This document shows positions 6,001 through 9,000 of a stretch of 13,248 nt of DNA, in pieces. This stretch comes from a virus. Taxonomy: Duplodnaviria > Heunggongvirae > Uroviricota > Caudoviricetes. A program made the position numbers. The first letter of the stretch is position 1. Each line of letters starts with the position of its first letter. The DNA lies in IMG/VR virus record IMGVR_UViG_2529292873_000008; one strand, 5' to 3'.

Positions 6001-9000
6001 CATCATTCACCGCCTGCTTCAGTACTTCCGGATCGTAATCACGACCATCACGCGGAACAGGAATATGGCTTACCGCCTCCTTCACCATCTGTTCAAGCAT
6101 CGGACGCACATCATCGGGGGTAATACTTTTGCCGTCCGCCGGTACCGGAATATTCGCAACCGCATCATTCACCGCCTGCTGCAGTACATCCGGATCATAA
6201 TCACGACCATCACGCGGAACAGGAATATGGCTTACCGCCTCCTTCACCATCTGTTCAAGCATCGGACGCACATCATCGGGGGTAATACTTTTGCCGTCCG
6301 CCGGTACCGGAATATTCGCAACCGCATCATTCACCGCCTGCTGCAGTACATCCGGATCATAATCACGACCATCACGCGGTACCGGAATGGCCCCCACAGC
6401 ATCATCCACCATCGCCTGCAGAACCGGACGCACCTCATCCACCGTCACATGCTTCTGTAATACCGCCGACAGGGAAGTCAGTTTCTCTTCAAACGCTTGT
6501 GCCTGCGAGGCCATCTTCCCCTCAAATGTGCGCTGTAAATCCGCCAGCACTGTGGAGAATTCTTCTCCCAGTGCACGGATAATGGACAGTTCCCGTTCCG
6601 TCATTTTCTCAGTATCCCCCCTGAACATCGCTTTCACCGCATCATGCTCTGTTTCACTGATTGCCTTATTACCGTCAGATGCGCCGTCAGGCAGTTGGGC
6701 TGAAACTCTTTTCCCGGACGACGCGAACGGATCTTCACGGGCATCACGACGGGACAGCGCCTCCAGACTGTAGTTCTGCTGCTGAAGATACAGTGCATCA
6801 CCGCCGGCCAGGGGCGGCAGGTTCTCCCGTTTACGGGCCTCATTGGGCGTGAGAAGCGTATTTTTCACCGCATCCCCCAGCGTTTTCATGCGCCGCTCAC
6901 TGTCCATTCTCAGCAGCGTGGTGACATCAAATTCTGTACTCTCGTTTTCCCCCGTTTCCAGCGCCTCATCCAGTAACAGTTCAATGGACTCAATCAGCGT
7001 CTGCAGGCACTGGGAATAATACTGCTGCTCCAGCGCCTCCACGTTGTCACTGGAAGGCGGTTGTCCCACGCCAATCTTGTAGGCCGGGACACGGAACACC
7101 GAACAGACAATTTCAGCGGTCATCTTCAGTTGTTCCACCGTCTGCGCATCCACCGGTGAAAACGTCGTGGGGTTGTATTTTGCCCCGTTGCTCAGAATGG
7201 CCGTTTTCCCCGCATTTTCGCCGGTATACCCGCTGTCCCAGTTGCTCTTCAGTTTTTTCGCATTTTCTTCCGTAATACTGCCGGGGATCTCAATCACCCC
7301 GGACGGCCTGCCGCCATTTCTGAAAAAAGACGTCGAATTTTCCTGAATATGATGCCCCTGCGTGGCCGCCAGCCCGGCAGCATACACCGGCGGCAGCCCC
7401 ACAAGCGGATGAAAAAAACAGTTAAACCGGTCGTGGATCACTTCCCTGGCAGGCACCGTCACCGCCTCCGTGATCCCGCAGTTCCGGTCCGGTGTAATGC
7501 GATAGAACACCTCGCCGTCATCCGCCACCAGAGGTTCAACCCGGCTCCAGTCCAGAATACGCAGTTCTTTGATCTGCCCCCGGGAGTTACGGATTTTCAG
7601 CACCACCGTATTGCCGTGACGCAGTTTGGCGTTCAGCCACAGTTCAAAAAACTGGATACGATTCTGCTGTGCATTGGGACGACGACAGAGACGGGCAATA
7701 TCCCCCTGCCGTTTTTCACTGCGTATCCCATGCGCATCCGTCTGCATAAGACGCAGCCGCATTTTGGCGATATCCTGGGATATCAGCGAAATACATGCAA
7801 ACACCGCATGAAAGGAGAGGACGGCTTCAGGATCGGCTTTCACGCCCTGCTGCCAGGCGCCGGAAAAGGGCTCAGCCACCGCCTGAAACAGGCTGGTCCA
7901 GCCCGCCTCTCTTACGTCACGTCCTGATTTCTGGTTTTTTCGGGTTCGCCGTAAAAGGTTCCACATTCGCCATGCTCCGCATCACGTTTCTTTTTCTGAC
8001 CTGCCGGACGTCGCACCGTGATGTACTCCGCCTTTCCCAGGCGAACCAGCACCTCCGCACACGGCTGTGCCACATCACGGATATCCCCGGCCCGGGCATC
8101 ATGCGTGCCCTGCAGATATCGGATCTTTGCCATAACCTGTTACGGGAGGCGCACGCCTCCCGTCCTCCTTATCAGACTCAGCCGCCGGACGCACTGCCGT
8201 AGTTCACTCCGGTGATCACCGCCACCGCCGCAGTACGGCGACGACGCCAGTTGATCCAGCGCTCCGCACGGATGGCCACGCTGCCTGTCTGGAACATGGA
8301 AACCAGCTCCACCGGGGACGGCGTGGTACTGTCGCCGGTCGGCTCAGACTGCATTTCCAGTGATGCCTCGCGGGACATATCCACTGCCACGCCGCCGTCA
8401 TCCGCCAGATAAATATCCGGGGCATTCACCAGCACCAGCTGGTCACCCACGTACTGGGAGACAATCACCGGCAGCCCCTGGAAGGAGCCACCCAGCAGGG
8501 TCATGTCCGGGTATTCCTTCTGACCCAGCGCATTTTTACGCATGGACAGTGCCAGGGCATTGGTGCTGGACATCAGCCAGACCGCACCGGTGGGCTGCAG
8601 GTTTGCTGCCACAAACTGTCCAAACGCAGCCTCTGCATCCGCATCCGGGTTACCGGTTGATGCCGTGCCCTTCACATCATGGGTGATGGACGCCGGGGAG
8701 ACATCTGCCACTGCGCTTTTTTCGGGTCCACAAAGTCTGTATCCAGACGCGCCACCACCGCTTCCGCCAGCGCATTACGGACCAGCGCATCAGCTGCCGG
8801 ACTGGAAAAACGGATCAGCTCTTCCGTCAGTACCGCAATGGCCGACACCTTCGCATGACTGAAGGTGATGGATTCAAAATCAAACTTCGTCAGGGGTCTG
8901 GCCTTACCCTCCCCCACCCAGCCGGCAGCACCACCGGACACCTGGGCATGCACGCGGATATTGAACGGCACCTGACGAAGTGCAGGGATCCCGCCCTGAC

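Follow-up and report, generated by a model that had tools for sequence, protein, structure and literature searches.

The window, that is, the whole stretch of DNA that was analysed, is the complete 13,248-bp contig AETZ01000077.1 of assembly GCA_000187325.3. AETZ00000000 is the 2011 draft genome of the sorbitol-fermenting Escherichia coli O157:H- strain H2687 (PMC3271280). All genes in the window are carried on the minus strand, and both ends of the contig lie inside prophage genes. The draft was presumably produced by 454 sequencing and Newbler assembly, a point that was not used as evidence. The features on which this study bears are listed in Table 1.

Table 1. Coordinates of the capsid gene, its parts and the other affected genes in the 13,248-bp window
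Feature	Coordinates	Strand	Details
Prohead protease (Peptidase_S78)/scaffold-like linker/HK97-type major capsid protein fusion gene	8178..10114	-	1937 nt here
ORF A, 480 aa	8672..10114	-	Protease and N-terminal capsid, then 14 out-of-frame residues (QWQMSPRRPSPMM, stop); from translation
-1 frame, C-terminal 179 capsid residues	8178..8774	-	Open from the upstream stop at 8775-8777; from translation
Missing-base site	8714..8716	.	Plus strand: window CTGC-GC, relatives CTGC[G/A/C]GC
A6 run (T6 on the plus strand), not the lesion	8717..8722	-	Length 6 in 83/83 relatives
Portal gene with long C-terminal extension	5220..7966	-	Private -1 at about 5822 leaves 735 + 188 aa; relatives CTG[C/T]GG, window CTGGG
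TerL gene	10178..11838	-	Three private 1-nt indels: -1 at about 11750, +1 at about 10564, -1 at about 10304; from alignment
TerS gene	11835..12397	-	Private -1 at 12321; relatives CC[G/A]GCGG, window CCGCGG
Tape-measure gene, private 7-nt deletion	509..523	-	Relatives CTGC[CGCCTGC]TGACG

The capsid gene is interrupted as deposited. ORF A, which runs from 10114 to 8672, ends in ...FVDPKKAQWQMSPRRPSPMM with its stop codon at 8672-8674, and the -1 frame (8774 to 8178) encodes ...VADVSPASITHDVKG... up to the natural C-terminus. The A6 run is situated in the overlap of the two frames, and the addition of one base anywhere in this overlap rejoins them. When the joined protein was searched against Pfam, residues 48-152 matched Peptidase_S78 (PF04586; E 2.4e-08) and residues 386-635 matched Phage_capsid (PF05065; E 3.2e-14). 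Thus, the gene is a fusion of a prohead protease with an HK97-type capsid protein. The sequence as given holds no uninterrupted capsid reading frame, because of the 1-nt lesion at 8714-8716. A preliminary description of this DNA had reported an N-terminal ORF whose C-terminal part continues in the -1 frame, with the break inside the capsid fold. Translation confirmed this layout, and the break was located at about residue 466 of the joined protein, within the Phage_capsid match. The same description had attributed the split to a deficit of one nucleotide in a single gene, which was borne out by comparison with relatives: among the matches listed, these span 1938 nt vs 1937 in the window.

The major tail protein (2972-3823, minus strand) carries a C-terminal Ig-like domain with matches to Ig_3, Ig_2 and I-set. 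An A-run at about 3737-3747, at the junction of the major-tail and tail-completion genes, is A11 here and A6-G-A5 or other forms in relatives, and the C7 tract at 12671-12677 upstream of TerS is replaced in relatives by C8-C12 or by runs of A and C. Fewer of the fetched relatives matched the tail segment (1750-4000) at 90% identity or more than matched the head module.

Position and privacy of the missing base

A search for close relatives of the capsid gene hit 1,252 of 5,426 complete E. coli genomes as well as 93 phage records, the latter from Stx-converting phages such as phage 2851 and YYZ-2008, and 83 relatives were fetched for comparison with the gene at the level of the site. The gene was a single intact CDS in relatives wherever it was annotated, including the 1938-nt CDS of phage 2851, E. 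coli 4/4 and E. coli 493/89. On the plus strand at 8714-8716, relatives read CTGC[G/A/C]GCTTTTTT and the window reads CTGCGCTTTTTT. Pairwise alignment of CTGCGGCTTTTTT from the relatives with the window sequence placed the difference two bases from the T6 run. The extra base was present in all 83 relatives (G in 76, A in 5 and C in 2 on the plus strand), and the homopolymer itself was six bases long in every one of them, as it is in the window. On the coding strand, the relatives read AAA AAA GCN GCA GTG vs AAA AAA GCG CA in the window, and the missing base is the wobble position of an Ala codon (GCC, GCT or GCG). The resulting deletion junction in the window is ...AAAAAAGCGCAGTGG....

Restoration of this base yielded a 645-aa protein reading ...FVDPKKAAVADVS... 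(DPKKAAVADVS). Alignment of the joined protein to capsid homologues, which the preliminary description had proposed as a check, showed it to be collinear with them over 645 aa, matching the homologue of E. coli 4/4 at 644/645 residues and the phage 2851 homologue at 643/645. The homologues continue as a single 645-aa ORF, and none of them was seen to end near the break.

These comparisons bear on the view that the gene was broken by a change in homopolymer length, in which an A7 run lost one A, whether through mutation or base miscalling. The run does fall where the two frames overlap, and by arithmetic an A7 would rejoin them, as the preliminary description had pointed out when it placed the deficit in the A6 tract. 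However, relatives with an intact ORF all carry A6, which is thus the ancestral length, and the difference lies in the adjacent GCN wobble base; in addition, none of the other private indels in the window, described below, occurs in a run longer than two. Repair to A7 was therefore rejected on the strength of the A6 runs of the relatives. Since the deficit lies outside the homopolymer, at the Ala wobble base, such a repair gives a protein that is wrong by one residue (KKSAVADV, where relatives have KKAAVADV). A homopolymer-length event is thus highly improbable. The earlier suggestion of either a mutation or a homopolymer sequencing error survives in part: a sequencing error is still a live reading of the break, but contraction of the homopolymer is not.

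A second view of the split gene is a two-product arrangement, in which a programmed -1 frameshift on G-AAA-AAA-G would yield full-length capsid protein. The shift needed is indeed -1, with the A6 run in the overlap, and slippage on it would yield ...KKSAVADV..., which departs from the wild type by one residue. No canonical X XXY YYZ heptamer was found in the zero frame, which reads CCG AAA AAA GCG and to which G AAA AAA does not fit; the reading frame divides the run as AAA AAA and not as A-AAA-AAG. The 87 nt downstream folded with a minimum free energy of -27.1 kcal/mol vs a mean of -29.1 kcal/mol for shuffled sequences (z = +0.59), and so were no better structured than the shuffles. The two-ORF layout is unique to this contig, with a single ORF in all 83 relatives, and the break falls inside the capsid fold. 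Programmed frameshifting was rejected for want of conservation, of a canonical heptamer and of structure, and it is scarcely credible as an account of the split; the preliminary description had already judged it unlikely.

The lesion is private to the window. A search of complete E. coli genomes with an 81-mer spanning the deletion junction matched 2,793 places in 1,149 records, among them the sister strain 493/89, and none of these carried the junction; the exact junction was also absent from IMG/VR, the GTDB representative genomes and the JGI metagenomes. In an index of 153 billion genes, the truncated 480-aa protein was found in contig AETZ01000077.1 only, where it is also called by the NCBI annotation. 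The best match of the capsid gene among the complete E. coli genomes listed was 98.8%. One further record had a best place of at least 99% to the capsid gene, presumably over part of its length; it does not carry the junction, as no record reaches 99% for the 81-mer.

Further private frameshifts in the same contig

An indel was scored as private when all or nearly all of the relatives covering the site disagreed with the window. Seven such indels were found, and each of them breaks a reading frame: a 7-nt deletion at 516, 1-nt deletions at 5822, 8715, 10304, 11750 and 12321, and a 1-nt insertion at 10564. The genes that they hit are those for the tape measure, the portal, the capsid, TerL (three times) and TerS. 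Only four private substitutions were counted over the window as a whole, and 6,000-13,248 held none; every variant base there is present in some relative. The six frameshifts in four virion genes other than the capsid gene had been missed in the preliminary description, as had the protease-capsid fusion; they point to a probable problem of the contig-wide consensus and away from a lone inactivating mutation or homopolymer miscall.

The individual changes differ in form. At 10564, both alleles found in relatives stand side by side in the window (ACTCC and ATTCC, giving ACTTCC). At 10296-10312 in TerL, relatives read AAGAATGGCG and the window reads AAGATTGCG, a net loss of one base that involves three changes of run length. 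The 7-nt deletion in the tape-measure gene (CGCCTGC) lies between 4-nt CTGC direct repeats and shifts the frame to a stop at 476; the seven bases at 509-523 were kept in all eight relatives that cover them, 493/89 included.

Reversion of the six 1-nt indels restored the TerS, TerL, capsid and portal genes and left no further stop or gap. The restored TerS protein (187 aa) was 99.5% identical to that of 493/89; the restored TerL protein was 553 aa long, the capsid protein 645 aa, and the portal protein 861 aa plus an additional 54-aa repeat. Compared with its nearest relative, the capsid gene has 23 nucleotide differences but its product only a single amino-acid difference. Because reversion exposes no other lesion and capsid variation is so nearly silent, the contig bears no sign of decay apart from its frameshifts, and its alleles are otherwise pristine and selected. 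Spontaneous mutation in E. coli produces several-fold more substitutions than indels. The frameshift-only pattern is therefore unlike neutral decay.

These findings bear on a third view, that the capsid deletion is a genuine inactivating mutation. One lambdoid prophage of H2687 would then be truly decaying, with frameshifted capsid, terminase, portal and tape-measure genes, and other prophages could complement it. The deposited sequence says as much, and the 7-nt deletion between direct repeats is a typical product of slipped-strand mispairing. The portal gene of the 493/89 copy is, moreover, annotated as frameshifted. However, seven private indels stand against no private substitution in 6-13.2 kb, reversion of the indels uncovers neither a nonsense codon nor any other lesion, and variation is almost purely synonymous. 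The capsid lesion is also absent from all 2,793 places in complete genomes, those of the clonal sister strain included.

The portal gene shows length variation of a separate kind. Its minus-strand G-run at 6616-6621 (the gene being read from 7966 to 5220) is G6 in 26 copies, the window included, and G5 in 21; the G5 copies have at least two flanking haplotypes and include the closed genome of 493/89. With G6, the reading frame of a portal of canonical size (about 455 codons) runs on into a C-terminal extension of 357-573 codons that holds 54-aa repeats. With G5, the portal frame stops four codons past the G-run, and an extension ORF in the -1 frame starts 8-12 codons upstream; among G5 copies that are not interrupted by the end of a contig, most keep this ORF intact over 303-465 codons. 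Slippage by -1 on AGG GGG AUA in the G5 copies would produce the very protein that G6 encodes. Over the first 90 codons of the extension, pN/pS was 0.48 among G5 copies and 0.39 among G6 copies, and some phage records annotate "portal protein (x2)". The G5/G6 difference could mark a slip that recurrently creates pseudogenes, a tract under phase variation or a site of frameshifting. The 54-aa repeats of the extension correspond to a 162-nt tandem repeat at 5686-6388 (4.3 copies, 94% matches), which is shorter by one unit in phage 2851 and E. coli 4/4; the site of the private deletion at 5822 is within this array.

A multi-copy module and allele averaging

The window is a draft contig of a region that is present in multiple copies in its lineage. 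The capsid segment matched six places in the closed genome of the sister strain 493/89 (NZ_CP038412.1) and up to seven per genome elsewhere. One of the six 493/89 copies, which carries the A allele at the capsid site, was fetched, and its capsid, TerL and TerS genes were intact. This copy was identical to the window over 1-1750 except for the 7-nt gap, and 96.75% identical overall. The A allele is rare (39 of 1,228 records) and is carried by O55:H7, sorbitol-fermenting and early O157, O145:H28 and a few other strains, 493/89 among them. For the tail segment, the best match in complete E. coli genomes was 98.7%, and 493/89 was absent among the best 60 records. With 96.75% overall identity to the 493/89 copy, and best genome matches of 98.8% for the capsid and 98.7% for the tail segment, the contig, on these sequence comparisons, is absent as one continuous sequence even from its own clone.

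Relatives were polymorphic at each of the 1-nt indel sites. The local sequence of the window was compared with the average, rounded run by run, of the run lengths of two alleles observed in relatives. Averaging reproduced five of the six 1-nt indels (5822, 8715, 10564, 11750 and 12321); for example, ACTCC and ATTCC gave ACTTCC, and CTGCGGC and CTGCAGC gave CTGCGC. Simulated random indels were reproduced in 46 of 284 cases (16%), which gives a binomial probability of about 6e-4 for at least five of six. Such a coincidence of the private indels with inter-copy SNPs, as exact allele averages, argues against a genuine deletion. Pairs of prophages within the same genome differed at 10564, 11750 and 12321 by exactly the allele pairs needed. 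For the change at 10304, no pair of observed alleles gave the window sequence when averaged, and the model likewise does not account for the 7-nt deletion at 516.

Analyses of mosaicism did not discriminate between the window and real copies. Switching between the best pair of haplotypes was counted 31-34 times in TerL vs 3-28 in controls, but genuine relatives without near-twins were equally mosaic. In the capsid and portal genes, switching was inside the control range, and this phage family is naturally mosaic. A greedy count of copying segments gave 44 in the window, and genuine relatives again were equally mosaic once near-twins had been removed. Around 8715, a single haplotype is followed over about 1 kb of the window, so that an equal mix of copies may not hold for this very site.

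Origin of the capsid frameshift

The capsid frameshift is probably a consensus artefact that arose when near-identical prophage copies were collapsed into one draft contig. This reading draws on the placement of indels at inter-copy SNPs, the multi-copy state of the lineage, the lack of any real copy that matches the contig, and the occurrence elsewhere of every base in 6-13.2 kb; the private indels also come without the private substitutions that would be expected beside them (seven vs none in 6,000-13,248). Reads from several copies appear to have been merged, and we infer the exact consensus mechanism as follows. The H2687 lineage carries several non-identical copies of the lambdoid head/packaging module, and the assembler would have combined reads from different copies into a single consensus. 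At a few inter-copy SNPs that alter local run lengths, this consensus would then have dropped a base or, in one case, kept both alleles. At the capsid site, copies reading GCC-GCA and GCT-GCA (or GCG-GCA) would have given GC-GCA, and the outcome would be a 1-nt deletion at a synonymous Ala wobble position beside an unchanged A6 run. The real copies of the gene in H2687 are predicted to encode intact 645-aa protease-capsid fusions.

In its content, the window resembles known phages closely. Phage 2851 (a Pankowvirus, in which the product is named "major head protein Gp17"), YYZ-2008 and modules of the Sakai Sp6/9/10/12 type matched the 1937-nt query at up to 98.8% nucleotide identity. These and other Stx-converting and lambdoid relatives share with the window the gene order TerS, TerL, protease-capsid, portal, head-tail genes and tail, as well as the Pfam domains of the fusion protein, with 643-644 of 645 residues identical after repair. 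The window differs from the Stx-phage fusion gene in lacking one Ala wobble base after A6 and in being split into a 480-aa and a C-terminal fragment. Its likeness to collapsed-repeat errors in drafts of enterohaemorrhagic E. coli (EHEC) with lambdoid prophages is extensive: the contig is short, ends inside prophage genes and covers a multi-copy module, no single real copy matches it, the indels lie at inter-copy SNPs, and they outnumber substitutions. Unlike what simple allele averaging in collapsed repeats would leave, two of the seven indels are unexplained.

The defective prophage pool of O157 (Asadulghani et al. 2009, PMC2669165) consists of prophages of the same kind, with portal, head and packaging genes affected. 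In the finished genome of O157 Sakai, Sp6, Sp9 and Sp12 have the same head-module layout and were scored defective in portal and head, and for the head and portal genes in modules of this type, frameshift mutations are on record (PMC2669165). In contrast to that pool, the lesions of the window are private to one draft contig, come without substitutions and sit on SNP sites, whereas a genuine defect in a finished genome would be expected to be inherited and common to related strains. Since the changes at 10304 and 516 escape the averaging model, a single 493/89 copy was compared and the Sakai defects are documented, a genuine inactivating deletion keeps a small but real share of the probability and is, on balance, unlikely. 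A combination of the two biological views, in which the deletion is real in one H2687 prophage and occasional -1 slippage on G-AAA-AAA-G rescues an Ala-to-Ser capsid protein for the prophage pool, is very unlikely indeed.

If the capsid lesion were real, it would add one more private defect to the well-described pool of defective prophages in O157. Taken at face value, the contig would suggest a prophage in which four or five virion genes are dead, and its capsid break a homopolymer slip; neither reading is likely to be right. As a caution, a frameshift that an older draft genome of EHEC shows in a multi-copy prophage region calls for confirmation from reads or from a closed genome before it is scored as a pseudogene or taken as evidence on the functional state of the prophage.
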